Shown: positions 451 to 42,542 of the stretch, one piece after another
Layout of the letters: the number at the start of each line of letters is the position of its first letter
Numbering within the stretch: position 1 is the first letter of the stretch
Sequence record: SRR22947727_28
Length of the DNA: 45,309 bases
Reading direction: 5' to 3' (one strand)
Program-made: the position numbers and the translations under genes
The notes under the pieces: model-generated
Databases searched by the model: none
Told to the model about the DNA's origin: nothing
Seen by the model: the letters and a program-made list of their open reading frames with translations, nothing else

Positions 451-451
451 T

Positions 452-1312: not shown

Positions 1313-1313
1313 A

Positions 1314-2849: not shown

Positions 2850-3074
2850 ATGAAAAAAAATTCAAAAGAAATTAAAAAGGGATTAAAGTTTATAAATCAG
2901 ATACAAAGTATCAGATCAAAAAATAATAAAAATTGGATGGATTTATTAAGGTTGTCTCTTAAACTTGACTTCAATTCAACTTCAAAAATTCTTAAAGAAA
3001 TTTGTAAAGATGATAAGAGAATTTCCAATCTTGCTCAAAAAATATATAGATTAAATAAAACTAATGAAAAATAA
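2850..3074 (+). CDS. Small helical hypothetical protein (74 aa) overlapping the pseI start
   Basis: ATG start, amphipathic pattern IQSIRSKNNKNWMDLLRL, and an 11-nt overlap with pseI. Confidence 0.75.
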   Translation: MKKNSKEIKKGLKFINQIQSIRSKNNKNWMDLLRLSLKLDFNSTSKILKEICKDDKRISNLAQKIYRLNKTNEK

Positions 3075-8341: not shown

Positions 8342-9472
8342 TCATACATCTTCTATTATTTCATACACTGCGGATGAATTAGGTAAATTGAGACTTTCTA
8401 CAGTTGAAAAATCATCAGAAATAAAATTTATTGATGCTTTTTTTGCAAAAGGAACTTTATCCCGAATAAAATTATTTTGTCTTCGAATTTCACTACATCC
8501 CACAAAGTATCCTGTAGGTACTCGACAAAGACCTCTAGTATAACCATATAGTTTCGCCTTCACTCTTGAACCTACTATTAAAGTTCTCTCTTGTGACTCA
8601 CATATTGCAGTTTGAGAAGGATCTATCAAAACTGAATGTGGTTGTCGAAGTCCAGTAGAAATCAACTCCACATCATTCATTGAACTTGAGTCTAGTGGGA
8701 TACGCCCAATACATCCATCATTCCATATACCTAGTCGCCAAATACCCTTAAAACTAAAAGCAGAAAAATAGAGATAATCATCATGAACACAAAGTGAATT
8801 TATATGGTGTTGATCTCGTCCCATATTACCTAATTTAAGTCTTTTCTTTTCACTAAAATCTTTACCACTAAGAAATATAATTGAGTCAGAGTATGTTTCA
8901 GAAACTATAAACTGATCAACATGATCAACATAAACCATACTGTGAAGATTTTTATTTTCTATACTTTTGATTAATTCAAAACCATTTGGCCCTATAAAAC
9001 CTAAGCCTAAATTTTCATCAACTCCATATAAATCATTTTTCTTAAAAGCAATTCCCCTTATCTGACCACTACAAAGACGATCTAATCTTTTATTATCATG
9101 TTCCCATATTACTCTGTATGCGCCTCCACTTTCATCTTTTTCATGACAAGAAGCGATCAAACGGTATGAACTTATTTCATCATTTACTGTAATAGTGTCA
9201 GAAATTTTTATCGATAAGGAAGTATCAGGGCTTAGTTTTTTTAAATAATTCTGAATCTGCTTATAATCTAATGAGCAAATTATTATATCTCCTTTTTTTA
9301 ACAAATCAGTGTTTTCAGTAGGGTTTAAAACTGTAAAGACATGGTTGTTAATTTTTATTTTCTTGCCGTGATCATACGTATCAAAAAGAAGATCATTTTT
9401 TTTAGGAAAACCATGCTTAGCTATATGAGTTTGAAACGTTGGTCCAACTCCATAAAAAATATTGTAAAACAT
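8342..9472 (-). CDS. N-terminal Rossmann-like domain fused to a beta-propeller (DUF4915-like)
   Basis: Propeller blade motifs IRGIAF, NLHS, DQHHINSL, LRQPHSV and YTRGL; N-terminal IFYGVG...IIICS pattern. Confidence 0.65.
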   Translation of the reverse strand: MFYNIFYGVGPTFQTHIAKHGFPKKNDLLFDTYDHGKKIKINNHVFTVLNPTENTDLLKKGDIIICSLDYKQIQNYLKKLSPDTSLSIKISDTITVNDEISSYRLIASCHEKDESGGAYRVIWEHDNKRLDRLCSGQIRGIAFKKNDLYGVDENLGLGFIGPNGFELIKSIENKNLHSMVYVDHVDQFIVSETYSDSIIFLSGKDFSEKKRLKLGNMGRDQHHINSLCVHDDYLYFSAFSFKGIWRLGIWNDGCIGRIPLDSSSMNDVELISTGLRQPHSVLIDPSQTAICESQERTLIVGSRVKAKLYGYTRGLCRVPTGYFVGCSEIRRQNNFIRDKVPFAKKASINFISDDFSTVESLNLPNSSAVYEIIEDV

Positions 9473-9519: not shown

Positions 9520-9759
9520 TCAAAATTTTATTTTGTATTTTTTTAAAATCTCTATCCCCTTCTTATAAGAACTGTAATCTACAATATCATCTGTTTCAAA
9601 TGATATTGAAAACTCGTCTTCAAGTGCAGAAATTAAACTCATATGTCCAATAGAGTCCCATTCGGGTATTTCATTGTATGCTAAATTATCACTAAATGTC
9701 TTTTCATTTACATTTAAAGAACTTTTGAATATTTTTTTATATTTTTCTAAATTGCTCAT
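9520..9759 (-). CDS. Acyl carrier protein
   Basis: 79 aa with WDSIGHMSLISALEDEF, which contains the phosphopantetheine attachment Ser. Confidence 0.92.
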   Translation of the reverse strand: MSNLEKYKKIFKSSLNVNEKTFSDNLAYNEIPEWDSIGHMSLISALEDEFSISFETDDIVDYSSYKKGIEILKKYKIKF

Positions 9760-10708
9760 AAATTGTATTTTCTATATTTTTTGCATCTAATTTAAAATGT
9801 TCTTTCAAGTAATCATAATCTCCTCCTTGACTGTAGCTATCATTTATTCCTATAAAAAGCTGAGGTGGAGAGTTTTTTATTTTTGATTTAACTTCCGAAA
9901 TAGAGGACCCAAGACCACCTATTATATTGTGTTCTTCAACAGATACTATCATTTTGCTATGCTTGCATTCATTTATTATCATTTCTTCATCAATAGGTTT
10001 GATAGTATGAGTATTAATTACACTACAGTGAATATTTTTTTTTTTCAACATTTCAGAGGCTTCTAAAGCATTTCTTACCATAGTTCCAGTAGCAAAAATT
10101 GATACGTCCTTACCGTTAATTATTTTGTGCGCTTTACCTATGTCAAATTTATAATCATTTAAATAAACAGGTTTGTTGTTAGACCCTCCAGTAAGTCTTA
10201 TATAAACACTATTTTTATGTTCAATTGCTGCATAAATACATTTTGCGGTTTCCCCACAATCCGCTGGAGATAATATTGTAAGATTAGGAATAGATCTTAA
10301 AACTCCAATATCCTCGATACTACAATGTGTATATCCCAAATTACCAAGTATTAATCCACTAGCTAAACCAACCATAATTACCTTTTCTTTCATATAGCCT
10401 AGGTTCACTTTTATTTGCTCACAGCATCTTAATGTTTGAAATGGTGAAAAAGTTGTAGTAATCACATCAAATCCTTCACTTGCCATCCCAGCTGCTACAC
10501 CTATTAAGTTTTGTTCTGCTATACCCACATCTAGATAATTTTTACTATAATTTTTTCTGAATCTATCTAAACCTGCTGATGTTGAAACATCAGAAGTTAA
10601 AATCATCAAATTTTTTTTATCCTTAACTAATTCTAAAGCTGTCATTCCAAAAGTTGCTCTAGATCCAATAGAAGAAAAAAGTTTTATATTTTTATCATTT
10701 AAAATCAC
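9737..10708 (-). CDS. Transketolase-family C-terminal subunit (pyrimidine-binding plus C-terminal domains)
   Basis: DVGIAEQN, EQIK, GYTH..ED, YIRL, IKPID and VEEH..GGLGS motifs. Confidence 0.92.
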   Translation of the reverse strand: MILNDKNIKLFSSIGSRATFGMTALELVKDKKNLMILTSDVSTSAGLDRFRKNYSKNYLDVGIAEQNLIGVAAGMASEGFDVITTTFSPFQTLRCCEQIKVNLGYMKEKVIMVGLASGLILGNLGYTHCSIEDIGVLRSIPNLTILSPADCGETAKCIYAAIEHKNSVYIRLTGGSNNKPVYLNDYKFDIGKAHKIINGKDVSIFATGTMVRNALEASEMLKKKNIHCSVINTHTIKPIDEEMIINECKHSKMIVSVEEHNIIGGLGSSISEVKSKIKNSPPQLFIGINDSYSQGGDYDYLKEHFKLDAKNIENTIYEQFRKI

Positions 10709-11513
10709 TATTCAACTCCTCAATCGATTCATCATAAAGCTTCTGAGTTAAAACAGAATGATGCCAATTATTATTGTTTTCAAATAATTTTACACCTTTC
10801 CCTTTAGTTGTTTTTGCAATTATTAATGATGGCTTTTGCGCTTTTTTAATTTTATTAAAACAATCAATAATGTCCCTAATATTATGTCCATTAATTTTAT
10901 AAACTTCCCACCCAAAAGATTTCCATTTTGTAGATAAATTTCTGTTACTTAATATCTCATCTAATGATCCTGTTTGTTGAAAATTATTATTATCTACTAT
11001 TGCAACTACATTCTTTAAATTTAAATTTGGTACCAACATTGCAGATTCCCAAACAGATCCCTCATTACACTCTCCATCACCAAGAACAACATACACATTT
11101 CGATTAATATTTTTTTTTTGTAATGAAATAGCTACACCTGTAGCAAGAGAAAGTCCCATTCCCAAACTCCCAGTTGAGAAATCTATACCAATTTTTTTAT
11201 TCTTCACCGGGTGACCAAGTAGATCACTTCCTGATTGTTCAAAAGTTTCTAGATGTTTTTTTTCAATATAACCTTTTTCATAAAGAACCGCATATAAAGC
11301 AAGACATGCGTGGCCCTTGCTCAGTATAAACCTATCTCTATCATCACTATTTTTATTAACATAAAAATAATTGTTAAATAAAGTTGCTAACACATCTACA
11401 ATTGAAAACGCTCCACCTATATGAGCAGCGTGAGAGCCGCCAATTTTTGCCATAAATAAAATATTCTTTCTAAATATTTTTGATTTTTTTTTTATATTCT
11501 CTATTTGTGACAT
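10695..11513 (-). CDS. Transketolase-family N-terminal (TPP-binding) subunit
   Basis: HIGGAFS, RDRFILSKGH, GHP, STGSLGMG, GDGECNEG..WE, NGH and KGKG..WH motifs. Confidence 0.93.
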   Translation of the reverse strand: MSQIENIKKKSKIFRKNILFMAKIGGSHAAHIGGAFSIVDVLATLFNNYFYVNKNSDDRDRFILSKGHACLALYAVLYEKGYIEKKHLETFEQSGSDLLGHPVKNKKIGIDFSTGSLGMGLSLATGVAISLQKKNINRNVYVVLGDGECNEGSVWESAMLVPNLNLKNVVAIVDNNNFQQTGSLDEILSNRNLSTKWKSFGWEVYKINGHNIRDIIDCFNKIKKAQKPSLIIAKTTKGKGVKLFENNNNWHHSVLTQKLYDESIEELNSDFK

Positions 11514-11519
11514 TAAATC

Positions 11520-12281
11520 TTAAATTTCTTCGTTTCCAAGACCACCATCTACTCGTATATCTTGTCCTGTTATATAATTTGATAATTTGCTACATAGAAA
11601 AAGTGCCACATTTGCAACCTCTTCTGGTGTACCTTTTCTTTTTAGTATGACTCTTTTTAATGTCTTTTCAATATTTTCATTAGTTGTATTTTCATTAAGC
11701 ATTTTTGTATCGATAAGGCCTGGTGAAATTGTATTTACTTTTATTTGAAATCTTCCCAATTCTTTAGCTAAAATTTTAGATCCTGTTGCTAATGCTGCTT
11801 TGCTGGTTGAGTAAGAAAATCTTCCATAATTAGCTTCAATTGCTGATGTTGACGATATATTTACTATATTTCCTGAACCATTTTTTATCATTTTTTTTAC
11901 AATTTTTTGAGTAAATAAAAAAGTGTTAACGAAATTAACTTCAAAAATTTTTTTTAAATTTTTACCTGATGTCATTTGAAAAATTCCATTTTCGATAATG
12001 CCAGCATTATTGATTAGGTTATCTACAGTAGTTGAATTATTGTCAATTTCTTTATAAGCATTTTTAATTGAGTTTTCATCCTCTAGATCTAGCTTTATAG
12101 GGTAAATTTCAACTTCATTTTTTTTAGATAGAAATTTAATTGTTTTTTCAAAATTATCATTCATATTTCTATAACATGCAAAGATTTTTGATGAGTTTTC
12201 AGAAAATTTGCTCAATATAGATAAGCCAATACCATTACTTGACCCTGTAATTACTGAGACATTATCCTTAAGTAATTTCAT
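11520..12281 (-). CDS. FabG-like short-chain dehydrogenase/reductase
   Basis: TGSSNGIG, NNAG, YSTSK, PGLIDT and ITGQDIRVDGG motifs. Confidence 0.9.
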   Translation of the reverse strand: MKLLKDNVSVITGSSNGIGLSILSKFSENSSKIFACYRNMNDNFEKTIKFLSKKNEVEIYPIKLDLEDENSIKNAYKEIDNNSTTVDNLINNAGIIENGIFQMTSGKNLKKIFEVNFVNTFLFTQKIVKKMIKNGSGNIVNISSTSAIEANYGRFSYSTSKAALATGSKILAKELGRFQIKVNTISPGLIDTKMLNENTTNENIEKTLKRVILKRKGTPEEVANVALFLCSKLSNYITGQDIRVDGGLGNEEI

Positions 12282-12310
12282 TTTAAGTCTTGGATAATTA
12301 TCACTCGCTA

Positions 12311-13369
12311 CTAGACAAAATCTTCTTTAGAAAAAATTTCCTCAGCAAGAGCTGGTTTAAAAATACTTTGGCCTGATTTAGTCATAAATTTACTTATAAA
12401 GTTTTTATCTTCTCCTGCCAAACATAGATCACTATGATTTTTAAAATGTTTGATTCTGAATCCATAATCAACAATTTCCTTTAAAGGATTTTTAAAAATA
12501 TTTCCTATCTTAATATGTACATATGGGCAAACTAAAACATCACCTATGGGAGTTATGTAAAGTCTATTAACAGTAGTACACCCAAGAATTTTTTCATGGT
12601 TTTTATCAAACGGATTCCAAACATTTCTAACAATATTTTTATATTCTTTTCTAATTTTTCGAAGATATTCCCTGTCATTATCATCACAAATTATATCTTC
12701 AGCATTTTGCCACATTCCAGAGGGAACAGCTACATTAAGGAGTGTCTTGTATCTTTTTTGTTTTGAGTAATCTAAGAGTTGTTTAAAATGCTCTGTATTT
12801 GCATTGTAATGCCCTACTGTAATATTTAAGTATGGATCCATCCCAGCATTCTTAACATGTTCCAATGCTTCTATTGCACGCCTCCAAGAATCTTTTCTTC
12901 CTCTAATCTCGTCATGTATTTTTTCATCCATACTATCTATGCTGACAGAAACCCTACTTACTTTAAATTCCGCAAGTCGTTTTGCCATTTTTTCATCTAA
13001 ATAATATCCATTTGTTGTTAAATACATATAAAATCGTTCAGGTTTTATTGCTTCTAAGACTTGAAATAATTTTTTTGGCTGAAGGAGCAGTTCGCCTCCT
13101 TGCAAGTCAAATTCAAAATATCCTAATTCATCTGCATCATCAGCTAATTTTCTTATAGCATTTATATCAAGATATTCTTTAACATGGTCACCTTTTGGAG
13201 AGTTTGTAAAACAATATTTGCATCTTAAGTTGCAAGCATTATTAAAATTCAAATCAATACCTCTGGTTTTGGTACCAACTTTTCCATCATTTTTTTGAAC
13301 ATAAGTATAAAAATCTTTTAATTTTTTTACCAATCTGGGCTTATCAAGTAATGATGAGGCTATAGGCAT
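12311..13369 (-). CDS. Radical SAM protein with SPASM/twitch-like C-terminus
   Basis: CNLRCKYC, GGE, TTNG, VSIDS, HDEIRG and C-terminal GC..LYITPIGDVLVCPY...C motifs. Confidence 0.93.
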   Translation of the reverse strand: MPIASSLLDKPRLVKKLKDFYTYVQKNDGKVGTKTRGIDLNFNNACNLRCKYCFTNSPKGDHVKEYLDINAIRKLADDADELGYFEFDLQGGELLLQPKKLFQVLEAIKPERFYMYLTTNGYYLDEKMAKRLAEFKVSRVSVSIDSMDEKIHDEIRGRKDSWRRAIEALEHVKNAGMDPYLNITVGHYNANTEHFKQLLDYSKQKRYKTLLNVAVPSGMWQNAEDIICDDNDREYLRKIRKEYKNIVRNVWNPFDKNHEKILGCTTVNRLYITPIGDVLVCPYVHIKIGNIFKNPLKEIVDYGFRIKHFKNHSDLCLAGEDKNFISKFMTKSGQSIFKPALAEEIFSKEDFV

Positions 13370-13833
13370 TAATTTTTACTTATATATTGATTTAATGTAT
13401 CAGGTAATATCAAAGTAAAATCAGCACTACAAGCAAAATCTTTTTTAACATAACCAACCCCTTCACATTTTGCCATACCTCTTTTAAAAGAAATAATTTT
13501 AGTCTTAATTTGAAGAATATCTCCAGGTATAATTTTTTTTTTAAATTTAAGATTTGTAGCATTTACTAAATATAAAATTTTTCCTTTATTTCCTGGTAAT
13601 GTTAAAATTGCTAAAGAGCTCATTTGAACCATTGCTTCAACCTGTAACATACCTGGCATATTAGGATCAGATGGCCAATGAACTTTAAAAAACCATTCTT
13701 TTTTTGTTAATTTTTTATATCCTATGGAGCTCACACCAGGAACAACCTCTGTGGCATGATCAATCATTAAATAAGGATCTCTATTTTGCTGGTAATTTTC
13801 AATCTCTTTTTTGTCTAACGTAAGTTTTATCAT
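13369..13833 (-). CDS. FabZ-like beta-hydroxyacyl-ACP dehydratase
   Basis: RDPYLMID, FFKVHWP..PNMPGMLQVEAM and PGD motifs (hot-dog fold His/Glu). Confidence 0.9.
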   Translation of the reverse strand: MIKLTLDKKEIENYQQNRDPYLMIDHATEVVPGVSSIGYKKLTKKEWFFKVHWPSDPNMPGMLQVEAMVQMSSLAILTLPGNKGKILYLVNATNLKFKKKIIPGDILQIKTKIISFKRGMAKCEGVGYVKKDFACSADFTLILPDTLNQYISKN

Positions 13834-13838
13834 ATCAA

Positions 13839-15044
13839 TTATTTTATAATAACACTTCTAGATAATGATGAAATAATATCATAACCATCCCAATCTAAAT
13901 CCATATTTAGTGCTTGACCAAAAGGTACAATTCTATCAACCCCTTGAATGTTGTTATCTCTTATAAATTTTTCTAATTTATTTTTTGAAAAACCAAAGTA
14001 CGTAAGTGTTTGAAATTTTTTATTTATTATATCTTTTAATATCAATAAATCATTTAACTGATATTCATAAAAATATCCCCACTTACCTCTAAGATTTTCA
14101 AGTCCGCTTTTAATTTTTTTTAATCTTATTGTCTGCAAACCATTACTGTAGTTTTTATACCCTAAAATATCTTCATTTATTGCAAAATCTTTACAAAGTT
14201 TCGTATATTTATCTATGATTGCAATTTCTGGTAAAACATAATCCTGTTTAGTTTTTTTTGAAAGTTCGACCCAAAACTTTTCAATAGTTTTTTCAATATT
14301 TTTATGACTATACCAAAGAACAATATGTGGTGATGAGCAAGCATTTTGATCAGCTGTATAAGTATCATTAAAAAAATTTTTTACCAAAATTTTCAAATCA
14401 TTATTCCGTAATTTGCTGACTTTATTTGCATTTATGATGCTGAAAGAGTATCTGTCTCCAAATGTGACGTCAGTTGCGTGCGGTTTAATTTTAAACTCTC
14501 GTAGAGTATTAATTGTTTTGTCACCTCCCCAAATTATTCTCATGTCACAAATTTCTGAGATTTTTTCCGAAATACAATTTTTATCATTATCTTGATATCG
14601 TATAATGGTAATAAGATCTTTAATGCTTGAATATTCTTTTTTTGATAAAATTTTTTTAATTTCCTTACAAATCATGTCTATTTGAGGAAATTGTTTGGAT
14701 GGAACCTTAACAATATTGGAATTTCCAGAGATTAAACCAAACAATAAAGAATAAATAAAATTAGTAGGAACATTTGATGGTGTGATATGAAAAATTAAAC
14801 CTCTTCCAAATCTAATTTGGGAGTTTTTATATTTTTTTTTAAGTTTTGATAAATTGCTAGAACTACACCAAAAAGCTAACGCAACAAGGTCTGTGTGTTT
14901 TCTGTATGTTTTATTCTTTAGTAAATTTTTTGAAAGGTTTTCAAGAAAACTACAAACAATATTCTCAAATGGCTTTAAGGTCTTTGATTGTACAATATTA
15001 TTTCCAACTAGATATTTTATATCCTTTAATTTTAAACTATACAT
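13839..15044 (-). CDS. LuxC-family acyl-CoA/acyl-protein reductase
   Basis: GRGLIFHITPSNVP, WGG, DRYS, DQNACSSP (catalytic Cys) and DRIVPFG..WDG motifs. Confidence 0.9.
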   Translation of the reverse strand: MYSLKLKDIKYLVGNNIVQSKTLKPFENIVCSFLENLSKNLLKNKTYRKHTDLVALAFWCSSSNLSKLKKKYKNSQIRFGRGLIFHITPSNVPTNFIYSLLFGLISGNSNIVKVPSKQFPQIDMICKEIKKILSKKEYSSIKDLITIIRYQDNDKNCISEKISEICDMRIIWGGDKTINTLREFKIKPHATDVTFGDRYSFSIINANKVSKLRNNDLKILVKNFFNDTYTADQNACSSPHIVLWYSHKNIEKTIEKFWVELSKKTKQDYVLPEIAIIDKYTKLCKDFAINEDILGYKNYSNGLQTIRLKKIKSGLENLRGKWGYFYEYQLNDLLILKDIINKKFQTLTYFGFSKNKLEKFIRDNNIQGVDRIVPFGQALNMDLDWDGYDIISSLSRSVIIK

Positions 15045-16089
15045 TTGCGCAACCTCTAATTTCTGAATTTTTTACTCTTCCTTTAATTGTAAAACATTTA
15101 CCTTTAAATCCACAATTACATTTAGCTAATTTCCCCAAATCTTCAGTTAAAATATTATGACCTGGATAGCTTTTTGGTAATAAAGAGATCAATTGTACTA
15201 TACCCTCCTCATTTTCAATTTGATTAAAATTTTTATCTCTTATTATTACGTCAGAGAAATTAGAACACATAAAAACATTACATTTAGGGCATTCAAAAAA
15301 AATTGAACCAACTTGCTCAACTAGTCCATAATAATTTATTATTTTTTTGACATTGTATTTATTTAAAAAATTTTTCTTAAATAGATGATTTGATATTTTT
15401 TTATTTTCTAATTTTTTCCATCCACCTCCATGAATCAAAATAGAATTTTTTAAATCTATCTTCTCTTTAAAATTTGAATTCTCAAAAAAAGCTGAATACA
15501 CATCACTAGTGAACCCAAAAATTAAAAATTTTTTTTTTCCAAATTTTTCGACAAAATTAAAAAGCACTTCTTCATTTATTTTATTAGAGGAATTTAAAAG
15601 ATAGTGATGATTTTTACCAAAAATTGAAAAACCTCTTATTGCTGCAGATTTTGCATCAAATTTATTTTTTTCAAAATTTATATCTTTATTAACAATAAGC
15701 ATCGGTAATCTATTTTTTCCAATAAAATGAGATACAATTTTTGAAAGTGCGAGTCTTTGAGATGTAGCGTTCTCCTTATCAAGAAAAATTTTTGATTGTG
15801 ATGAACCAGAGGTACCAGAAGAAAGCAAAGTTTTAAAAATTTGATTAGATGAAATACTTTTTAAATCTAACTCTTTAAATATGCTAGTTGTTAAAAAAGG
15901 AAGTTCAGAAACCTCATAGTTTTTATTATATTTATAATCAAAACCACTTAAAATTTTTTTGTATAAATTTGATTTTGAATAATGATATCTAGTTAAGTCA
16001 TTTAAATATTTTTTAAATAATAAGTCTTTATCCTTACTATCAAGACTGAATGGATCAAGTTTAAATAAATCTAATTTTTTTTGAATCAA
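15037..16089 (-). CDS. LuxE-family acyl-protein synthetase
   Basis: SSGTSG, FGFT, HGGGWKK, YYGLVE, SYPGHNILTEDLG and C-terminal GR..SEIRGC motifs. Confidence 0.9.
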   Translation of the reverse strand: MIQKKLDLFKLDPFSLDSKDKDLLFKKYLNDLTRYHYSKSNLYKKILSGFDYKYNKNYEVSELPFLTTSIFKELDLKSISSNQIFKTLLSSGTSGSSQSKIFLDKENATSQRLALSKIVSHFIGKNRLPMLIVNKDINFEKNKFDAKSAAIRGFSIFGKNHHYLLNSSNKINEEVLFNFVEKFGKKKFLIFGFTSDVYSAFFENSNFKEKIDLKNSILIHGGGWKKLENKKISNHLFKKNFLNKYNVKKIINYYGLVEQVGSIFFECPKCNVFMCSNFSDVIIRDKNFNQIENEEGIVQLISLLPKSYPGHNILTEDLGKLAKCNCGFKGKCFTIKGRVKNSEIRGCANV

Positions 16090-17459
16090 TTTAAAATCTT
16101 TTTATTTAGGAATTTTTTAACATATTTAAATTCAATGTAATTGATGTTTAATTTTAATTTTTTAGACAACATATTTTTAACCTTATCTAAAGAAACATTT
16201 TTGCCTGTATGCTGTATACACAATTTATTATCAGATATATCACATTTTACTTCATATCCATTTTTTTTTAAAAGGAACTCAACATCTTCTAAATCTATTC
16301 TTACACCAAAGACTTTTGATATTCTTTTGATTCTACCAACTATATAATAAAAACTATCTTTATCGTATTTAGCTAAATCTCCAGTAAATAAAATATTATT
16401 ATTTTCATCATTTTTAATTAGATCTTTATAAGAATTCGAGTATCCCATAAAAACATTTTTACCTTTAAAAACAAGTTCTCCTTGAGTATTTGGTGTAATA
16501 ATTTTTTTTCCTTGTTTATCTCTAATGTAAAAAAAATTATTGTTAATTGCCTTTCCTATACTATTTGTTTTTTTTTTTATAAATTTATAATCCAGCACAG
16601 ACATTCTTGGTGAAGCTTCTGTTTGACCATACATTGAATAAAATTTTATTTTATTTTTTTCAGAAAAATTTACAATTTTTTTAATTAAATTTTTATCCAA
16701 TTTGCCGCCCGCATTAGCAAAGAATTTAAGGTTTTTATTATAAAAATTTTTAAAATTTAGTTTATCAATTAACTCAAATATGTATGGAACACCATAAAAG
16801 CAGTTGGGTTGAAATTTTTTATATTTATCCCAAAATTTTTTTTCTAAAATTGAGTGGTTATTCAAAATTATTTTTCCACCAGAAATTAAATGAGTATTTA
16901 TAACCGAAATTCCATAAGTATAATTAAATGGCAATGTTGTTATTACGCTTTTGTTTCTAAGATGTAATGATGAAATTATGTCTTTTGAATTAGTTAAATA
17001 ATTTTCATATGAAAGCCTAACTAATTTTGGGCTACCTGTTGTTCCAGAAGTTGAAAGCAGTAAAGCTAAATCATCATTCATTAATATTTTTTTAATAAAT
17101 TTTTGTTTAGTACAAATATAATCTTTAAAATTAAATATTTTTTTGTATCCTTTAATTATATTTAAGCTCTTAGGTTGGATAATATAATTTGGTTTATATT
17201 TTAAAATTAAATTATTTAAATATTCTTTTTGAATATTTTTTTCAAATATAGCTACTACTGATTTCTGCCTAATTAGTCCAACATACGATGCTATTGACTC
17301 AATATCATTTTCAGCTAATAAAAAAACAAGTGATCTTTTATTAATTTTTGATGCTAGTTTATCTGATAAGTTTGTAAATTTTTCAAAAGTTAATTGATCA
17401 TTTTCATTAATAATACATATTTTATTATTGAATGCTGATAAATTTTTAAATAAAGACAT
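16086..17459 (-). CDS. AMP-dependent acyl-CoA/acyl-ACP ligase
   Basis: TSGTTGSPK, YGQTE, TGDLA, GR..R and GVRIDL adenylation motifs. Confidence 0.92.
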   Translation of the reverse strand: MSLFKNLSAFNNKICIINENDQLTFEKFTNLSDKLASKINKRSLVFLLAENDIESIASYVGLIRQKSVVAIFEKNIQKEYLNNLILKYKPNYIIQPKSLNIIKGYKKIFNFKDYICTKQKFIKKILMNDDLALLLSTSGTTGSPKLVRLSYENYLTNSKDIISSLHLRNKSVITTLPFNYTYGISVINTHLISGGKIILNNHSILEKKFWDKYKKFQPNCFYGVPYIFELIDKLNFKNFYNKNLKFFANAGGKLDKNLIKKIVNFSEKNKIKFYSMYGQTEASPRMSVLDYKFIKKKTNSIGKAINNNFFYIRDKQGKKIITPNTQGELVFKGKNVFMGYSNSYKDLIKNDENNNILFTGDLAKYDKDSFYYIVGRIKRISKVFGVRIDLEDVEFLLKKNGYEVKCDISDNKLCIQHTGKNVSLDKVKNMLSKKLKLNINYIEFKYVKKFLNKKILN

Positions 17460-17476
17460 TTTTTGTATGCAATAAA

Positions 17477-18367
17477 TTAAAAATTTGCTCTAAGTGTTTG
17501 CATTACAACTATATCCCTTTTATCATTTTTAGAAACTTTTTCTCTTCCATGTAAAAATCTATTATTATCAATCATAAACAAATCATTTTTTTTCCAATTA
17601 TGCTTATAAGTAAAAGAATCTGATTTTGATTTTATTTCATTAATTATTTTTCTTGGAATTTTCTCACCATTGCTAAGAGACCTACTTAAGATTTGAGGTT
17701 CAGATTTTAAAGTTACAATTAAATGATTTGCAAATGACAACCTATTTATAAATCTGACTTTATTTACTGCATATTTGTGATAGTCAAATTCAATGTTTGA
17801 TTTTTTAAAATCAATTATACAATTTTCAACTCCTGTATGAGGCAAATACCAATTCTTTTTGTTTTTTTTATTTTTATTTTTGTCAATAAAAGGAATTCTA
17901 AGACTAAATTTTATTAAATTCTTTAAAAAAAAATTTTTTGTTGAAAGTTTCAAACTATCCCAAAGCTTAACACCATCACATATAATTGTTTCTCCTCCCT
18001 CTTTGTTTGGTGGGGTAATGCAAGTAAACCAAATTATTTCTGGTGTAGATGGTGAAAAGCTTGCCTCACTATGCAAATCAATCTTTTGCAATCCACTATC
18101 AACATTTCTAATGTTATCTTTATTAAATCTTTTCTTTCTTCTTAAAGCATCATTAGCATAAGTAGTTGTAAATTTATCTGTAAATTGTCCAATTTTATCA
18201 ATACTCAAGTTAAAATTTCTGAACAGTATGATGCCCTTCTTATTAAATTCTTTTTTGATATTATTTACACTAATTCTGGTTATATTATTTTTTTTATTTT
18301 TATTAAAATAAATAACACCAAAATCATTAATTTTTTCTGATAATTTTTTTTTTATTAAGTGTGACAT
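17477..18367 (-). CDS. TauD/TfdA-family Fe(II)/2-oxoglutarate dioxygenase
   Basis: GIILFRNF, LHSE (HxE), GGET...DG and W...D...IDN.RFLHGR motifs. Confidence 0.88.
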   Translation of the reverse strand: MSHLIKKKLSEKINDFGVIYFNKNKKNNITRISVNNIKKEFNKKGIILFRNFNLSIDKIGQFTDKFTTTYANDALRRKKRFNKDNIRNVDSGLQKIDLHSEASFSPSTPEIIWFTCITPPNKEGGETIICDGVKLWDSLKLSTKNFFLKNLIKFSLRIPFIDKNKNKKNKKNWYLPHTGVENCIIDFKKSNIEFDYHKYAVNKVRFINRLSFANHLIVTLKSEPQILSRSLSNGEKIPRKIINEIKSKSDSFTYKHNWKKNDLFMIDNNRFLHGREKVSKNDKRDIVVMQTLRANF

Positions 18368-18368
18368 T

Positions 18369-19190
18369 TTAAAATTTTGGTATATTTTTTAACAAATAAT
18401 AACAATCTTTTTGAAGTTTTACTTTTAAAAACTTAAAAAGTTTTTTTGTTTCAATTAAATACAATTTTTTTTTATTATATATAGTTGTTTTTAAAAGATT
18501 TTTTTGTGAAAATTTTTTATTATTTCCTTCAATATCATTAATAATTTTATTATTACTATATTTAACAAAGCTTATTATTGGTAAATTTATTCTTTTGCCA
18601 TTTTTAATTATTTTTCCTTCATGGAGTTTAAAATATCTATGAGGAACACCGACTCTTTGCTCGACATAATGTACGTAAGTCATATATCTAAGATCAACAC
18701 CAAGAAATAACATTTTAGCATTTAAATTTGTTAAAATATCAAAAGGTGAGTCTATTCCATATGCAGAAGCTGTTTTATTATTGCATATTATTTTTGCATT
18801 TTTTCCTAAAGCAGCAATTGAAGCAATCGGATTAAGACTTCTAATTGATTTTTTTAAACCAGAAATATATCTAGAATAAATACCAATATTTAAATTAAGT
18901 GATGATTTTTTATTCAATTCGAAAACTTTCTTTTTATTAAATTCCCAATAAAAAGATGGAACACATATAGTTCCATTATCTCCAATAACAGTGCACAAAG
19001 ACTTATGCAAAATATTTATAGATGTTTTTAAATCGATGTCAGTAAAACCAATATCACTTATATTTGAATGAACTAAAACAGTATCATTTTTTTTTAAACC
19101 CAATTTCTTCAAATGTTCAATTAATTTTTTGCTTTTTGAATTAAAATAATCAGGTGATTTAGTTTTTAATATAGTCACAGACAAATTCAA
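18369..19190 (-). CDS. AAC(3)/YokD-family N-acyltransferase
   Basis: VLVHS, GTICVP, RSLNPIASIAALG, YGIDSPF, LFLGV and TYVHYVE motifs. Confidence 0.88.
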   Translation of the reverse strand: MNLSVTILKTKSPDYFNSKSKKLIEHLKKLGLKKNDTVLVHSNISDIGFTDIDLKTSINILHKSLCTVIGDNGTICVPSFYWEFNKKKVFELNKKSSLNLNIGIYSRYISGLKKSIRSLNPIASIAALGKNAKIICNNKTASAYGIDSPFDILTNLNAKMLFLGVDLRYMTYVHYVEQRVGVPHRYFKLHEGKIIKNGKRINLPIISFVKYSNNKIINDIEGNNKKFSQKNLLKTTIYNKKKLYLIETKKLFKFLKVKLQKDCYYLLKNIPKF

Positions 19191-20078
19191 TTATTTTATT
19201 TGAAGTTCATTTTTTACATTATTATTTCTTAGCATTTTTAAAATTGTACTTGAAGTTTTTATTGGCTTAAATCCAAATTTAAGTGCTTTTGAAAAATCAA
19301 TTATTTTATTTCTATTGGTAGTGACTATATATCTGAGTTTAATTTTTTTGTTATAGAAATTTTCATAAATAGAAATTATTTTTTTCAAATTAATAGGAAT
19401 TTTAGAACCTAAAACAAAAACTTTATAATAATAATTTGTTTTTTTATTAATCATTATTCTTATAAAATTAAAAATTTCTTCTGCATGTATTGTGTTATTA
19501 TATAAATCTTCTTTATTATTAATTGTTACTAAATCATCTTTATTTTTTTTATATACTACCATAAGTTTTGATATAAAATTTGAATGTGAGTTAATTCCTA
19601 CTGCAGCGGGTAGCCTTAATACCAAAATATTTTTTTTTTTTCTTGAAAATTCTTTTAATATTTTCTCACATTTAATTTTTGATTTACCATAATAATCATT
19701 AGCATTTAATCCTGTTTTCTCATCTATTTTCAATTCATTAAAACTTCCATAAACTGAATTTGAAGACATAAAAACAAAATTATTAAAACTAAATTTATTT
19801 AAAATTTCTTTTAGTGAATTTACATTATTATTATACAAATTTTGATCATTTTTGGTATTTACTCTTGTTTTTGATGCACAATGTATAATTAAATCATAAT
19901 GGTCTTTAAAATTTATGTGTTTAAGGTCAGTTTTAATCAGTTTAGTTATTTTCTTTAAACCTTTTGGTTTATTTTTGTTATACAGCGCAAATAATTTTAT
20001 TTTTTTATAATTTTTTTCAAATAACTTTAAAAGATTGAAACCAAGAAATCCGCTTGATCCAGTAACTAAAATTTTCAT
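19191..20078 (-). CDS. NAD-dependent epimerase/dehydratase (extended SDR)
   Basis: ILVTGSSGFLG, HCAS, SS.SVYG and YGKSK motifs. ATG 20078 preferred over GTG 20084. Confidence 0.88.
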   Translation of the reverse strand: MKILVTGSSGFLGFNLLKLFEKNYKKIKLFALYNKNKPKGLKKITKLIKTDLKHINFKDHYDLIIHCASKTRVNTKNDQNLYNNNVNSLKEILNKFSFNNFVFMSSNSVYGSFNELKIDEKTGLNANDYYGKSKIKCEKILKEFSRKKKNILVLRLPAAVGINSHSNFISKLMVVYKKNKDDLVTINNKEDLYNNTIHAEEIFNFIRIMINKKTNYYYKVFVLGSKIPINLKKIISIYENFYNKKIKLRYIVTTNRNKIIDFSKALKFGFKPIKTSSTILKMLRNNNVKNELQIK

Positions 20079-20204
20079 GTGCAATTCGATTTTTAATATT
20101 ATTAAAAATATTTTCTAGAAATCTTATATATAAATTTTCAAATTCTGTTAAACAAATATTGTATTTACAGGTTATTAATTGTTGATATTATATTAACAGA
20201 ACTT

Positions 20205-21065: not shown

Positions 21066-21899
21066 ATGTCAATATTTATCATTGCTGAAATAGGTATAAA
21101 CCATAACGGCGATATGAAAATATGTAAACAGTTAATAGATCTAGCTTCAGAGTCTGGGTGCGATGCTGTGAAATTTCAAAAACGAGATATAGAGAGTGTC
21201 TATGACAAAGAATTATTAGACAGTCCAAGAGAAAGTCCATGGGGCAAAACTCAAAGAGAGCAAAAATTAGGACTTGAATTTGATGAAAATCAATATCAAG
21301 AAATTGATAAATATTGTAAAGAAAAAAATATAGAATGGTTTGCTTCAGCTTGGGACCTTAAAAGCCAAGAATTTTTAAGAAAGTTTAATTGCAAATATAA
21401 TAAAATTGCTTCAGCAATGTTAGTTAACGAAAAGCTATTAAGAATGGTCTCAGAAGAAAAAAAACATACTTTTATATCCACTGGTTTGAGCACCATGGAT
21501 GATATTGAAAAAGCCGTAAAAATTTTTAGGGACAATAACTGCCCATTTGAATTAATGCATTGTGTTTCAACTTATCCAATGAAGGATGCGGATGCGAACC
21601 TTAGAACTATTCAAACACTTAAAGAGAAATTCAATTGTAATGTTGGTTATAGTGGTCATGAATCGGGTTTGACAATATCTTATGCTGCTGCTGCTCTAAG
21701 TATCTCGTCACTAGAGAGACATATAACTCTTGATAGAGCAATGTATGGTTCTGATCAGGCTGCATCATTAGCACCTCCTGGAATAAGAAAAATAGTTCCA
21801 GAAATTAGAAAAATAGAAAAAGCTTTAGGAGATGGTATTAAGAGAGTAATAGAAGACGAGGTGCCAATAGCAAAAAAATTAAGGCAACACTTAAAATAA
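21066..21899 (+). CDS. neuB: N-acetylneuraminate synthase family protein lacking the C-terminal SAF domain
   Basis: AEIGINHNG, DAVKFQKR, WFASAWD, KIASA, STG, HCVSTYP, GYSGHE and ERHITLDR..GSDQ motifs; only 277 aa. Confidence 0.92.
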   Translation: MSIFIIAEIGINHNGDMKICKQLIDLASESGCDAVKFQKRDIESVYDKELLDSPRESPWGKTQREQKLGLEFDENQYQEIDKYCKEKNIEWFASAWDLKSQEFLRKFNCKYNKIASAMLVNEKLLRMVSEEKKHTFISTGLSTMDDIEKAVKIFRDNNCPFELMHCVSTYPMKDADANLRTIQTLKEKFNCNVGYSGHESGLTISYAAAALSISSLERHITLDRAMYGSDQAASLAPPGIRKIVPEIRKIEKALGDGIKRVIEDEVPIAKKLRQHLK

Positions 21900-42050: not shown

Positions 42051-42542
42051 TTACCAATTCTTATTTAGATCAGCATCATTCTTTAAACTTATGAATGTAG
42101 GCCCATTTATTTTGTAAGTTTTTTTAACAAATTTTTCAGTTTCTGATCCATTTTTAGGATAAAAAGATTTTATATTTTTCATTAATGACATTAACTTCTT
42201 AGCATCTAGTTCACTATGAGTAGGTCCCAAAGAAGGATAATCTGCAAAACCAACTAGATTTACATTTGCTTTTTGTTGATCTATGTCTAATTTAACTTGT
42301 TCAAAAGGTCTTTCGATTAGAAAGGGAGTAATAGTATAAACCCAGGGTTTTAATCCTTGTAATGCTGCTCCCGCAGCAATTCCGATAATGCTTTGCTCAC
42401 ATATACCTAAATTATAAAATCTATCAGGATGTTCTTTTCTAAAACTATCAAAAATTCCATATCCAATATCACCTACAATCAAAATAATTTTTTTATCTTT
42501 TCTTGCAAGTTCTGTAATTATTTTTCCGAATGTTCTTCTCAT
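42051..42542 (-). CDS. Short transketolase beta subunit (pyrimidine-binding domain only)
   Basis: MRRTF, GDIGYG, NLGICEQ, PFLIERPFEQVKLD and GPTH motifs; 163 aa, with no C-terminal domain. Confidence 0.87.
   Translation of the reverse strand: MRRTFGKIITELARKDKKIILIVGDIGYGIFDSFRKEHPDRFYNLGICEQSIIGIAAGAALQGLKPWVYTITPFLIERPFEQVKLDIDQQKANVNLVGFADYPSLGPTHSELDAKKLMSLMKNIKSFYPKNGSETEKFVKKTYKINGPTFISLKNDADLNKNW

Follow-up and report, generated by a model that had tools for sequence, protein, structure and literature searches.

What would a set of acyl-handling enzymes, furnished with its own carrier protein, a split transketolase, and a radical SAM enzyme, make among genes for surface sugars, if it has no ketosynthase? 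The question is raised by one stretch of DNA of 45,309 nucleotides (sequence record SRR22947727_28; hereafter, the window), in which twelve co-directional open reading frames occupy the minus strand from 9520 to 20084. (An end previously placed at 20078 corresponds to an ATG in the same frame, two codons into the gene, which starts with TTG at 20084.) Their junctions are overlaps of 23, 14, 1, 8, and 4 bp, and gaps of 6, 29, 5, 17, 1, and 0 bp. An earlier note, made from the sequence letters, described same-strand, tightly packed genes with intact motifs and lacking a ketosynthase. Both points stand: the open reading frame listing, junctions, Pfam domains, and motif conservation agree on the first, and the 48 open reading frames scanned in the window encode no ketosynthase, enoyl reductase, or lipoyl/E2 domain.

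All features described here lie on the minus strand. The run opens with three genes: an NAD-dependent epimerase/SDR-family protein (19191–20084; 297 residues; Pfam Epimerase, E 4.5e-21); an AAC(3)-fold acyltransferase, a candidate N-acyl transferase (18369–19190; 273 residues; Pfam Antibiotic_NAT, 110 bits against a cut-off of 25); and a TauD/TfdA-family Fe(II)/2-oxoglutarate dioxygenase (17477–18367; 296 residues; Pfam TauD, E 1.2e-28). Nine collinear core genes follow: an AMP-forming ligase (16086–17459; 457 residues; Pfam AMP-binding, E 4.9e-41); a LuxE-family acyl-protein synthetase (15037–16089; 350 residues; Pfam LuxE, E 1.1e-40); a LuxC-family acyl-thioester reductase (13839–15044; 401 residues; Pfam LuxC, E 3.2e-32); a FabZ-like 3-hydroxyacyl-ACP dehydratase (13369–13833; 154 residues; Pfam FabA, E 3.7e-19); the radical SAM enzyme (12311–13369; 352 residues; Pfam Radical_SAM and SPASM); a FabG-like short-chain reductase (11520–12281; 253 residues; Pfam adh_short_C2, E 3.5e-53); the split transketolase, comprising TktN, the ThDP-binding (PP) subunit (10695–11513; 272 residues; Pfam Transketolase_N, E 9.4e-42), and TktC, the Pyr plus C-terminal subunit (9737–10708; 323 residues; Pfam Transket_pyr and Transketolase_C); and a dedicated acyl carrier protein, ACP (9520–9759; 79 residues), whose gene overlaps that of TktC by 23 bp. 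Every domain named in the run exceeds its Pfam cut-off except that of the ACP (PP-binding, 20.0 bits against a threshold of 20.8).

The same strand continues with a DUF4915-like gene 47 bp downstream of the ACP (8342–9472; 376 residues; 33.1 bits against a cut-off of 35) and a DUF4910/DUF2172/HTH_47 gene of the Cj1295 / CA_C2195 family (6990–8279; 429 residues; Pfam DUF4910, E 5.9e-99). Next comes a 494-residue protein without a Pfam or NCBIfam match (5306–6790), which the Atlas assigns to unannotated families that are widespread and about 490 residues long. The run is closed by PseB, the inverting UDP-GlcNAc 4,6-dehydratase (4180–5166; NCBIfam TIGR03589, 529 bits against a cut-off of 408), which marks the sugar pathway served.

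Is the block a unit? Gene presence was scored by tblastn (E at most 1e-10) in 83 related marine loci. Each of the 31 contigs that extend far enough on both sides of the radical SAM gene (upstream by at least 4.6 kb, downstream by at least 3.2 kb) carries all nine core genes, and the order FabG-TktN-TktC between the radical SAM enzyme and ACP recurs in 53 of 58 loci. This arrangement is far from chance, and the predicted co-occurrence as a block in other DNA is borne out. The conserved unit is nine genes, not twelve as first supposed. The leading SDR gene is private to this window, with no match at that threshold in any of the 83 loci, and the DUF4915-like gene was not found in them either. The optional members are TauD, DUF4910, and the AAC(3)-fold transferase. 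TauD reaches at least 80% coverage in 11 of 83 loci and changes position: of 41 loci, 3 have it immediately before the ligase, and of 50 loci, 5 have it immediately after the ACP, a slot that in 9 of those 50 belongs to a PhyH dioxygenase. Of 41 loci, 12 have the AAC(3)-fold gene directly before the ligase and 29 do not, so it is not the sole transferase, as the earlier note's assignment of N-acylation to it would have implied. (DUF4910 in turn directly precedes AAC(3) in L001, L052, L057, L062, and L069.) Other arrangements include a hexapeptide transferase between TktC and ACP (L137), and an AAC(3)-like protein together with ACP and a LuxE-LuxC fusion (L146).

The acyl enzymes keep their catalytic equipment and sit at a distance from typed families. 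Across 32 complete cassettes, all retain the LuxC active-site cysteine motif Q..C.SP, the LuxE SSGT loop and C-terminal RGC cysteine, ligase motifs A3, A5, A7, and A8, the FabZ His and Glu motif, and the FabG Y-x3-K; the ligase pocket motif LP..Y.YG varies. The ACP serine motif E33-W34-D35-S36-I37 is invariant, and a profile built from 53 cassette ACPs matches eight solved acyl carrier proteins (best E 5e-7). NCBIfam scores fall below cut-off for LuxC (42.9 bits against 750), LuxE (equivalog, 54.5 against 550), FabZ (105.5 against 113), and FabG (3-oxoacyl-ACP reductase, 193 against 298). The sole solved match to LuxC is LuxC 7xc6 (E 8e-4). The AAC(3)-fold protein, whose closest solved chains are AAC(3)s, YokD, and FrbF, scores so far below its AAC_3 cut-off (89.9 against 270) that it cannot be called a typed resistance enzyme. 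The private SDR weakly matches thioester-reductase domain TIGR01746 (E 2.6e-11).

The sugar context is consistent. Around the cassette, the window carries PseB, two NeuB genes, and PseC/PseF-like genes, and the surrounding DNA looks like a SAR11 hypervariable surface-glycan island. The block is always found among genes for pseudaminic or legionaminic acid. The cassette is common in SAR11-type ocean bacteria, where its most frequent recognisable neighbours are NeuB, PseB, PseC, or PseF-like genes. The same is true of a simpler five-gene module elsewhere. LuxC-family matches occur in 31 of 401 sampled genomes of the phylum; among the twelve of these examined, seven place ACP-FabG-ligase-LuxE-LuxC beside pse or aminotransferase genes, and two add a split transketolase, with FabZ in just one of the two. 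In the available text of the reports, the same five genes (ACP, FabG, AMP-ligase, LuxE, and LuxC) occur in the flagellin glycosylation islands of Aeromonas and enterobacteria, and a role in tetronate synthesis is assigned, by homology, to the related Vibrio cholerae genes VC0248-0252. The precedent in glycan loci thus holds, and the cassette, first put forward as a candidate for an undescribed system, is instead an enlarged form of a described module, whose own function is predicted. A literature search found no publication that assigns the full gene set, in line with the earlier note. The DUF4910 family likewise has a sugar precedent: as far as the accessible literature goes, it is linked to modified-sugar clusters, and di-O-methylglyceroyl-pseudaminic acid requires Cj1295.

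How might a chain grow without a ketosynthase? The transketolase may offer an answer. Its subunits most closely match solved chains of a split transketolase: TktN matches 6yak, the N-chain of the Carboxydothermus hydrogenoformans enzyme (E 2.4e-60), with which its GDG...NN motif and His residues align, and TktC matches 6yaj (E 4.8e-55). In all 57 SAR11-type copies of TktC, the His of reference motif 'tHaG' is Ala or Gly, the Asp of 'GeDG' is Leu or Phe, and the Arg of 'GRS' is Gly, Ser, or Ala; the first two changes also occur in L136 and L137. Residues were placed on Escherichia coli numbering through a HMMER alignment to two other transketolases and a motif that we take to be that of the E. 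coli enzyme. In E. coli transketolase, according to the published excerpts, R358, S385, H461, and R520 are ligands of the substrate phosphate, and D469 of sugar hydroxyls; a transketolase-like enzyme without those ligands is described as using non-phosphorylated substrates. By this alignment, the cassette enzyme appears to have lost two phosphate ligands and to carry Leu or Phe for the sugar-hydroxyl ligand Asp469. Such a channel would fit a plain aldehyde acceptor, such as the LuxC product, and lends indirect support to the earlier suggestion that a ThDP enzyme extends that aldehyde.

This leads to a general model, to which we assign a probability of roughly 0.55: the nine-gene core uses its own ACP to build an acyl group that is short, oxygenated, and not acetyl, destined for amide linkage to a 5,7-diamino nonulosonic acid (pseudaminic or legionaminic) of a SAR11-like surface glycan. 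The sequence of steps is one that we infer, and their order is a guess. The AMP-ligase would load a small acid onto the ACP, plausibly a dicarboxylate (malonate, succinate, or malate, the starter being a guess). LuxE would adenylate the free carboxyl for reduction to an aldehyde by LuxC, and the split transketolase would attach a two-carbon ketol unit. FabG would then reduce the new ketone, and FabZ would remove the beta-hydroxyl created by the addition; the radical SAM enzyme would contribute one further conserved redox or dehydration step. TauD or PhyH, where present, may hydroxylate the chain. The finished acyl group would pass to the sugar amine through the AAC(3)-fold enzyme, or through a hexapeptide-repeat transferase in other cassettes. 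The model draws on the nine-gene conservation, the sugar context, the embedded or adjacent transferases, the simpler five-gene forms, the transketolase channel, the conserved motifs, and the V. cholerae and Cj1295 precedents. A weak hint of expression also favours it: two metatranscriptome runs from one study contain exact short contigs, some crossing gene junctions, for which DNA carry-over is possible. Against it stand the 29 loci in which AAC(3) is not beside the ligase, and three loci (L036, L066, and L079) whose short contigs encode the radical SAM enzyme and ACP yet carry no transketolase gene, indicating that the radical SAM step is not strictly dependent on the ThDP step.

The settings of distant radical SAM relatives also count against the model, and would fit two sub-pathways in one operon: ACP, ligase, LuxE, LuxC, and FabG would assemble a simple hydroxyacyl group, presumably also the task of the five-gene module elsewhere, whereas the transketolase and radical SAM enzyme (perhaps with FabZ) would remodel a nucleotide sugar or nonulosonic-acid precursor into a branched, extended, or deoxygenated sugar. 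No other gene of the block is nearly as conserved as that of the radical SAM enzyme (median identity 89.8% to the 83 loci; pS 0.69, pN 0.065, dN/dS about 0.04). Cassettes are about 90% identical in this protein and 40–64% in the others, which would fit a constant sugar substrate. Its CxxxCxxC motif (C46/C50/C53) is invariant in 66 aligned relatives, as are C264/C281/C316, a putative three-cysteine auxiliary-cluster site. The AF2 model (pLDDT 93) finds SkfB, SuiB, anSME, MoaA, BlsE, and viperin as best folds, at TM scores of only 0.55–0.61; among its sequence or fold neighbours, MoaA, viperin, and BlsE act on nucleotides or nucleotide sugars. Seven of ten examined full-length relatives (27–37% identity) lie in sugar clusters without any LuxC, LuxE, or ACP: two near PseB/PseC genes and five in other clusters, three of which lack transketolase and have an ALS-type ThDP enzyme where annotated. 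(The remaining three have no glycan genes nearby; one is in a B12-radical SAM cluster.) In L097 and L099, the radical SAM gene adjoins an ALS/YerE-type ThDP enzyme, a sugar C-methyltransferase, NUDIX, and NDP-sugar dehydratases. Judged by these settings, a sugar-nucleotide substrate would fit equally well. The cassettes are moreover mosaic gene by gene, the ligase/LuxE/LuxC side being weakly coupled to the FabG/Tkt side. However, the transketolase and ACP genes overlap, with ACP coming second in 53 of 58 loci; FabZ, an acyl-thioester dehydratase, occurs only in cassettes with transketolase; a GMC oxidoreductase takes the radical SAM slot between FabZ and FabG in L137; and the altered channel speaks against a sugar or sugar-phosphate acceptor. 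A division into two sub-pathways therefore seems unlikely, if worth keeping in view. The earlier note's alternative, in which the product becomes the side chain of a branched higher-carbon sugar, may likewise be kept in view.

Alternatively, the acyl group may be made as proposed for another acceptor: a 4-amino-6-deoxyhexose or bacillosamine-type amino sugar, a hydroxyl (as an ester), or a non-sugar. The window contains a second DegT aminotransferase, a formyltransferase-like protein, RmlD-like enzymes, and heptose genes. The related V. cholerae O1 genes serve perosamine rather than a nonulosonic acid, in the portion of that work available, and Aeromonas AH-3 carries a separate 102-Da moiety of undefined nature besides its 376-Da pseudaminic derivative. 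The gene immediately before the ligase encodes DegT in 3 of 41 loci but NeuB in 12, and with pse-type genes the commonest neighbours and PseB closing the run, a different acceptor is rather improbable.

LuxC and LuxE are named for the luciferase fatty-aldehyde system. A free product, whether aldehyde, alcohol, or ketol, that serves as a lipid, signal, or osmolyte (as with the LuxCDE fatty-acid reductase) would suit those names and the 'fatty acid synthesis' and possible lipid component of the Aeromonas and enterobacterial papers, in their available text, but is very improbable, given a glycan island around every examined copy, scores far under the LuxC and LuxE equivalog cut-offs, the lack of LuxD, LuxAB, ketosynthase, or enoyl reductase among the window's scanned open reading frames, and a dedicated ACP with embedded N-acyltransferase genes, which indicate transfer rather than release.

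Together, these comparisons bring out two new points: the altered transketolase channel and the exceptional conservation of the radical SAM enzyme. TktN and TktC distances co-vary (rho 0.80), and the AMP-ligase has diverged furthest of the core genes (mean pairwise distance 0.58) and is the least coupled to the others. A fast-diverging ligase within a gene-by-gene mosaic suggests that the product varies between strains.

Between 9520 and 20084 the minus strand carries twelve open reading frames (ORFs) arranged head to tail, overlapping by 1–23 bp or separated by gaps of 0–29 bp. In order of transcription, the genes with their Pfam assignments are: an NAD-dependent epimerase/SDR (gene 1); an AAC(3)-fold acetyltransferase (gene 2); TauD (gene 3); an AMP-binding ligase (gene 4); LuxE (gene 5); LuxC (gene 6); FabZ (gene 7); a radical SAM/SPASM protein (gene 8); a FabG-type reductase (gene 9); transketolase N, the PP domain (gene 10); transketolase Pyr plus C (gene 11); and a small carrier protein (gene 12), the only one of the twelve below the Pfam threshold. 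The last is an acyl carrier protein (ACP), since a profile built from 53 family members matches eight solved ACPs; its predicted phosphopantetheine site, D35-S36, is invariant. The co-directional run of twelve genes with these domains, as described in the earlier note, is borne out. No cassette enzyme reaches an NCBIfam equivalog cut-off, and all are therefore taken as family members of unassigned specificity. The DNA is very AT-rich, with a GC content per kb of 18–32% in the window and 19–30% in the cassette.

The 48 window ORFs scanned include no ketosynthase, as had been noted, and no enoyl reductase or lipoyl/E2 domain; the first and second of these would mark a type II fatty acid synthase. 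The AAC(3)-fold protein belongs to that fold by Pfam only: it scores 89.9 bits against a cut-off of 270 (NF033082), and lower still with the AAC(3) subtypes. A typed AAC(3) aminoglycoside resistance acetyltransferase is thereby ruled out, as the NCBIfam AAC_3 cut-offs are not reached. PDB sequence searches with the radical SAM, TauD, AAC(3), and LuxC proteins returned distant family members only. Operon boundaries could be read neither from predicted promoters (116 sites between 3900 and 21100, versus 122 expected) nor from terminator-like sites in the same interval (8 versus 3.9 expected, every one inside a gene). Inside the FabG gene, near a T8 run (12118–12125), one contig from each of two DNA runs has an extra T behind position 12132; strain variation, a contig of a different organism, or an error could each account for it.

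Downstream on the minus strand follow, in order: a DUF4915-like gene; a DUF4910/DUF2172/HTH_47 gene (6990–8279); a gene for a 494-aa protein (5306–6790); and PseB, which passes its NCBIfam equivalog cut-off. Among the remaining genes of the window are two for NeuB, two of the CMP-transferase family, others resembling PseC, PseF and PtmA, genes for heptose and an ABC exporter, and those of a second split transketolase. The second NeuB-family gene (21066–21899, plus strand) encodes 277 aa, lacks the SAF domain present in the first (3064–4083), and scores under both the NeuB and PseI equivalog cut-offs. Two minus-strand genes belong to no family. The 494-aa protein is placed by the ESM Atlas in widespread, unannotated families of about 490 aa from several phyla; a 507-aa protein (21903–23426) has only a weak thymidylate-kinase-like stretch. 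Either could be one of the glycosyl or nonulosonate transferases that the window otherwise lacks.

Scanning species genomes for LuxC yielded three loci, all in single-cell genomes labelled Pelagibacteraceae or Alphaproteobacteria, and all with the cassette genes in the window's order. A scan of metagenome contigs for the radical SAM gene confirmed at least 539 of 600 candidate stretches; the best 80 of these, all marine, were joined with the three genome loci in a comparison set of 83. Wherever a contig is long enough, nine genes recur in one order: AMP-ligase, LuxE, LuxC, FabZ, radical SAM, FabG, the transketolase subunits TktN and TktC, and ACP. All nine are present in each of the 31 loci whose contigs extend 4.6 kb or more upstream and 3.2 kb or more downstream of the radical SAM gene. 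FabG-TktN-TktC lies between radical SAM and ACP in 53 of the 58 loci that show both the radical SAM gene and a downstream ACP, with NeuB inserted after the radical SAM gene in three of the 53. ACP precedes the transketolase in L032 and L070, and the short contigs of L036, L066, and L079 carry radical SAM and ACP with no transketolase anywhere. A second FabG-TktN-TktC set was seen in L012. TauD occurs in 11 of the 83 loci and DUF4910 in 5 (at 80% coverage or more); the AAC(3)-fold gene is likewise variable, and no other locus was found to carry the SDR that opens the window's run.

The nearest gene on each side of the cassette was also surveyed. Directly upstream of the ligase, in 41 loci, stand AAC(3)-fold genes (12), NeuB (12), TauD (3), DegT (3), and other or no genes (11). 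Directly downstream of ACP, in 50 loci, stand a PhyH dioxygenase (9), TauD (5), a CMP-transferase (4), and an ORF of 412–423 aa (about 14). This last ORF lies on either strand (L014 11044–12294, L040 6012–7274, L060 7152–8423, and about 11 more) and is of a type absent from the window; it has only a sub-threshold Radical_SAM/Fer4_12 signal, with Radical_SAM in five of the 14 and a PglD_N-like start in one.

The gene set is thus a real, abundant, and conserved unit, and its predicted recurrence as a block in other genomes has been confirmed. The earlier interpretation is supported in part. The unit is not one of twelve genes, as first proposed, but of nine fixed genes plus options. Nor is the transferase always the AAC(3) protein, whose gene stands beside the ligase in 12 of 41 loci.

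Within this unit the radical SAM gene stands apart. Its median identity to the window is 89.8% across the 83 loci (the best 80 of at least 539, plus three), compared with 40.6–63.6% for the other eight core genes; in a comparison of 32 complete cassettes it has a mean pairwise distance of 0.10, and the others 0.35–0.58. Recent transfer would explain such identity, but is ruled out by saturated synonymous sites: median pS is 0.69, pN 0.065, and dN/dS about 0.04 (from the 71 of 79 comparisons with finite dS). These rates indicate deep purifying selection. Pairwise distances of the nine genes correlate weakly (0.11–0.60), except between TktN and TktC (rho 0.80), and the ligase, whose pocket motif varies, is the most divergent and least coupled core gene. 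The weak correlations also speak against a clean split into two co-inherited halves at the radical SAM gene, which L004–L007 had suggested. By these distances, the cassette recombines gene by gene around a nearly fixed radical SAM gene, which fits strain-to-strain variation in its product.

The host is most likely of SAR11 type. The radical SAM gene was found (E ≤ 1e-60) in 27 of 401 sampled genomes from the order of the Pelagibacteraceae single cell, five of which align collinearly with the window cassette at 65–76% nucleotide identity. Seventeen marine or estuary runs, belonging to 13 studies, contain near-identical DNA. According to a Pelagibacter preprint, genes for surface polysaccharides predominate in the hypervariable region HVR2, where GC averages 25.3%, and an earlier paper describes it in similar terms; the window therefore most likely derives from a SAR11-type hypervariable island. 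The preprint makes no mention of radical SAM, transketolase, or nonulosonic acids. Two metatranscriptome runs from one study contain short contigs identical to the cassette, some bridging the ligase/LuxE and TauD/ligase junctions. More than 90% of contigs matching the window do so only in part, as short AT-rich stretches from other organisms. The exact contigs weakly hint at transcription of the cassette, with DNA carry-over as the alternative. In viral contigs, none of eight candidate stretches for the radical SAM gene was confirmed; the ESM Atlas places the protein in generic clusters, one of the nearest of which lists Uroviricota among its few recorded taxa.

A simpler form of the cassette has been described. 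Flagellin glycosylation islands of Aeromonas group II and of enterobacteria contain contiguous genes for ACP, 3-oxoacyl-ACP reductase, AMP-dependent synthetase, LuxE, and LuxC beside pse genes; a possible lipid component was proposed there (PMC7874193, PMC4875605). The window has all five families on one strand (9520–17459), with four further genes interleaved, and shares the location among pse/neu genes (PseB, two NeuB, PseC-like, PseF-like). In 15 of 41 related loci the ligase has NeuB or DegT as its upstream neighbour. Unlike the five-gene module, the window form adds FabZ, radical SAM, and the split transketolase as fixed members, with TauD, AAC(3), and DUF4910 optional. What the earlier note took as a candidate for an undescribed system is thus an enlarged form of a module already described. 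The open-access papers searched include none assigning a product to either the five-gene or the nine-gene form. The SAR11-like host presumably lacks a flagellum, so the target would be a surface glycan other than flagellin. Aeromonas strain AH-3, which has the five-gene module, is reported to make a pseudaminic derivative of 376.14 Da. Subtracting 316.13 would correspond to an acetyl replaced by a C4H6O3 acyl group, which we treat as a coincidence of mass only.

Loci in other Pseudomonadota connect the two forms. LuxC-family matches occur in 31 of the 401 genomes of a phylum sample, and 12 of these loci were examined. Seven have the exact five-gene module beside pse or aminotransferase genes, and three have a fused LuxE-LuxC. 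One locus (L136) adds a split transketolase and a second FabG to the module. In another (L137) the additions are FabZ, a split transketolase whose TktC is separated from ACP by a hexapeptide acyltransferase, and a GMC oxidoreductase; the last occupies the slot held in SAR11 by the radical SAM gene, which was found in none of the 12. In pairwise alignment the window LuxC has 25–35% identity to LuxC of nine five-gene-type loci, with the same partial Pfam profile. The forms make up a modular family in which the five genes may or may not be joined by a transketolase, FabZ, an oxidoreductase or radical SAM enzyme, and a dioxygenase. As none of the 12 loci has the radical SAM gene, the window cassette is the most elaborate known form.

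Vibrio cholerae O1 provides an assigned precedent. There, VC0248–VC0252 (rfbK-O / wbeK-O) are assigned to 3-deoxy-L-glycero-tetronate, the N-acyl substituent on perosamine; that pathway is described as 'based solely on homology', with RfbL proposed to load 2,4-dihydroxybutanoate onto CoA or RfbK. The precedent cited in the earlier note for LuxC, LuxE, ACP, and ligase is therefore sound, but is itself assigned by homology. Common to both sets are a carrier protein, an AMP-ligase, and LuxC/LuxE-type genes within a glycan locus. We take the V. cholerae genes to include a LuxE-LuxC fusion and an iron-dependent alcohol dehydrogenase. The window differs in having LuxE and LuxC as separate genes, no iron-dependent alcohol dehydrogenase domain, and FabZ, FabG, radical SAM, and transketolase in addition. 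One of the fused LuxE-LuxC loci (L146), which also has an AAC(3)-like gene, ACP, Fe-alcohol dehydrogenase, and ligase, matches the description of VC0248–0252.

Two further systems invite comparison. The window gene at 6990–8279 has all three domains (DUF4910-DUF2172-HTH_47) of the Cj1295 / CA_C2195 family, which is linked by gene neighbourhood to modified-sugar clusters with ACP and aminosugar N-acetyltransferases. Cj1295 itself is reported to be required for di-O-methylglyceroyl-pseudaminic acid, with the adjacent Cj1296/7 listed as an N-acetyltransferase; the Cj1295-type gene is optional in cassette loci (5 of 83 at 80% coverage or more). As in luciferase LuxCDE, the window LuxC and LuxE are Pfam members with the LuxC active-site Cys and the LuxE C-terminal Cys conserved. 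In contrast, they score far below the equivalog cut-offs (LuxC, 42.9 bits versus 750; LuxE, 54.5 versus 550), lie in a glycan context, and are accompanied by no LuxD or LuxAB domain in the window. The most likely product of the cassette is an N-acyl group that decorates a nonulosonic acid.

What might a transketolase contribute? The best solved relative of both cassette subunits is ChTK, the split-gene enzyme from Carboxydothermus hydrogenoformans (6yaj, E 4.8e-55; 6yak, E 2.4e-60), with which they share the two-chain architecture. Scores with the transketolase equivalog PRK05899.2-5 are 192.7 bits (C) and 237.2 bits (N) against a cut-off of 488, but the model was built for the unsplit protein, which makes the shortfall weak evidence. 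ChTK is reported to be active with hydroxypyruvate and various aldehydes, and to be free of the substitutions at R358, S385, D469, and R520 that are known to change specificity. Aligned with 6yak/6yaj and human transketolase, the cassette enzyme keeps the ThDP motif (GDG...NN), the PP-subunit histidines, and the activating Glu (GI[AS]EQN in 56 of 57 TktC copies). Three substrate-channel motifs of ChTK and human transketolase are altered in the window: tHaG becomes lAsG; GeDG becomes GnLG; and GRS becomes GGS. All 57 SAR11-type TktC proteins, as well as those of L136 and L137, have Ala or Gly for the His, and Leu or Phe for the Asp; in the 57, the second Arg (in GRS) is Gly, Ser, or Ala.

In E. 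coli transketolase, R358, S385, H461, and R520 bind the substrate phosphate, and D469 hydrogen-bonds sugar hydroxyls and sets stereoselectivity (PMC11387542). Of the four phosphate ligands, the cassette enzyme keeps the first Arg and the Ser; the aligned His and second Arg are altered, as is the residue aligned with Asp469. The assignment of the motifs to H461, D469, and R520 is partly presumed. If the mapping is right, the enzyme would retain half a phosphate site and place a hydrophobic residue where the acceptor 2-hydroxyl would bind. Such a channel would fit an aliphatic aldehyde, such as the LuxC product. Ketol addition to a 3-oxo-type aldehyde on a thioester would create a β-hydroxyl, which may be why FabZ accompanies the transketolase.

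There are precedents for recruiting such enzymes. QncN/QncL/QncM and SclQ1-4 comprise a transketolase-like E1, a lipoyl/E2 component, and ACP, and make glycolyl-ACP from ketose phosphate, thereby delivering a C2 unit into an acyl-carrier pathway (PMC6335953). Like them, the cassette encodes a split ThDP enzyme (PP; Pyr + TK_C subunits) beside a small ACP; unlike them, it lies in a window with no Biotin_lipoyl or 2-oxoacid_dh domain among the 48 ORFs, and the Qnc/Scl route needs lipoyl-attachment and acyltransferase (E2) domains. AniP, of anisomycin biosynthesis, is likewise a transketolase relative recruited to a specialised pathway, by description: it uses non-phosphorylated substrates, lacks the phosphate ligands, and has a bulky hydrophobic residue at the D469 position (PMC11387542). 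Unlike the cassette enzyme, it is a single chain, takes an aromatic keto acid as donor, and is associated with neither an ACP nor a glycan context. The second split transketolase of the window (minus strand) consists of an N subunit (42542–43303) and a 163-aa Pyr-only subunit (42051–42542) with no C-terminal domain. It is 29–37% identical to that of the cassette, also lacks the aligned His/Asp motif, and is followed directly by a SAM methyltransferase (41384–42046, minus strand) among heptose and epimerase genes.

The radical SAM enzyme has few close relatives. A library of 1.8 billion representatives contains only 145 at E ≤ 1e-30, and identity among the full-length ones falls from 66% to 39–42%, and then to 36% and below. 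Six cysteines are invariant in 66 sequences: the CxxxCxxC triad (C46, C50, C53), and C264, C281, and C316. A SPASM domain has a seven-cysteine motif for two auxiliary clusters. In place of the seven, only C264-x11-G-x4-C281 and C316 are invariant, and three Cys ligands would suit one auxiliary cluster of twitch-like type that leaves a site open. The structure model (pLDDT 93) retrieves only generic twitch/SPASM folds (TM 0.55–0.61), with no functional assignment, and the best score for a predicted complex with ACP, from runs without controls, is 0.23 against a mark of 0.34, which speaks neither for nor against an interaction.

All ten more distant relatives (27–37% identity) in the phylum sample were examined. 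Two lie about 5 kb from PseB/PseC and an aldo-keto-reductase/CMP-transferase/class-III-aminotransferase trio also present at the left end of the window. Five lie in other sugar clusters; in the annotated ones (L097, L099) the neighbours include an ALS-type ThDP enzyme, a sugar C-methyltransferase, NUDIX, and B12-rSAM. The remaining three share no nearby genes with the window, and one of them is in a B12-rSAM cluster. The closest non-SAR11 relative in the sample (L095, 36–37% identity) is surrounded by five B12-rSAM genes and no glycan genes, and offers no functional lead.

Several of these neighbourhoods deserve description in their own right. The trio occupies 1–2030 (minus strand) in the window as an aldo-keto reductase, a CTP_transf_3 cytidylyltransferase, and a class-III aminotransferase, and adjoins PseB/PseC in two unrelated high-GC Pseudomonadota loci (L096 11720–13776; L098 215–2280). 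Aeromonas group I islands likewise list aldo/keto reductase and class-III aminotransferase. In L095 (4701–16972, from a 49% GC Pseudomonadota), which has no bearing on the cassette, seven radical SAM genes, five of them B12-binding, lie beside an LPG_synthase_TM protein. L097 (4328–14903) and L099 (4685–16140), from other Pseudomonadota, share a conserved deoxysugar cluster with a relative of the cassette radical SAM enzyme at about 28% identity: NDP-sugar dehydratase, DegT aminotransferase, sugar C-methyltransferase, NUDIX, 480-aa epimerase, ALS/YerE-type ThDP enzyme, B12-rSAM, GT2, and a NeuB-cupin fusion.

Our best guess for the radical SAM reaction is a redox or dehydration step on a hydroxylated intermediate, given the GMC oxidoreductase in the same slot of L137 and the repeated company of ThDP enzymes. 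L036, L066, and L079 have the radical SAM gene with no transketolase on their short contigs. Roles for the transketolase and radical SAM enzymes in acyl synthesis are what we infer from the cassette; alternatively, the two enzymes may remodel the sugar itself.

In the boldest reading of this evidence, acyl synthesis would proceed as follows. LuxE and LuxC would make an aldehyde on or beside the dedicated carrier protein; the transketolase, with its reduced phosphate site and Asp469 replaced by Leu or Phe, would add two-carbon ketol units to it; and the constrained radical SAM enzyme, with its putative three-cysteine auxiliary cluster, would act after ketol addition. This joint reading, in which acyl chains grow independently of a ketosynthase through a re-tooled transketolase, undergo a radical SAM step with no known counterpart, and end as polyhydroxy or deoxy acyl groups on SAR11 nonulosonic acids, varied among strains by recombination within the cassette, is tentative; we give it about three chances in ten.

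If the joint reading is true, the nonulosonic acids of the ocean's most abundant bacteria bear a polyhydroxy or deoxy acyl decoration. The SAR11 hypervariable island is thought to set the cell-surface structures recognised by phages and grazers, and the cassette is a fixed, recognisable unit inside this otherwise strain-specific region. In V. cholerae, loss of the ligase of the tetronate genes is reported to change the O antigen and confer resistance to phage ICP1; susceptibility to phage can therefore hinge on such an acyl decoration. The cassette is of interest to enzymologists too, for its natural transketolase with an active-site change like that engineered for non-sugar aldehydes, and for its radical SAM enzyme under extreme constraint. 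Moreover, its product, once worked out, would also explain the five-gene module of the Aeromonas and enterobacterial flagellin islands.
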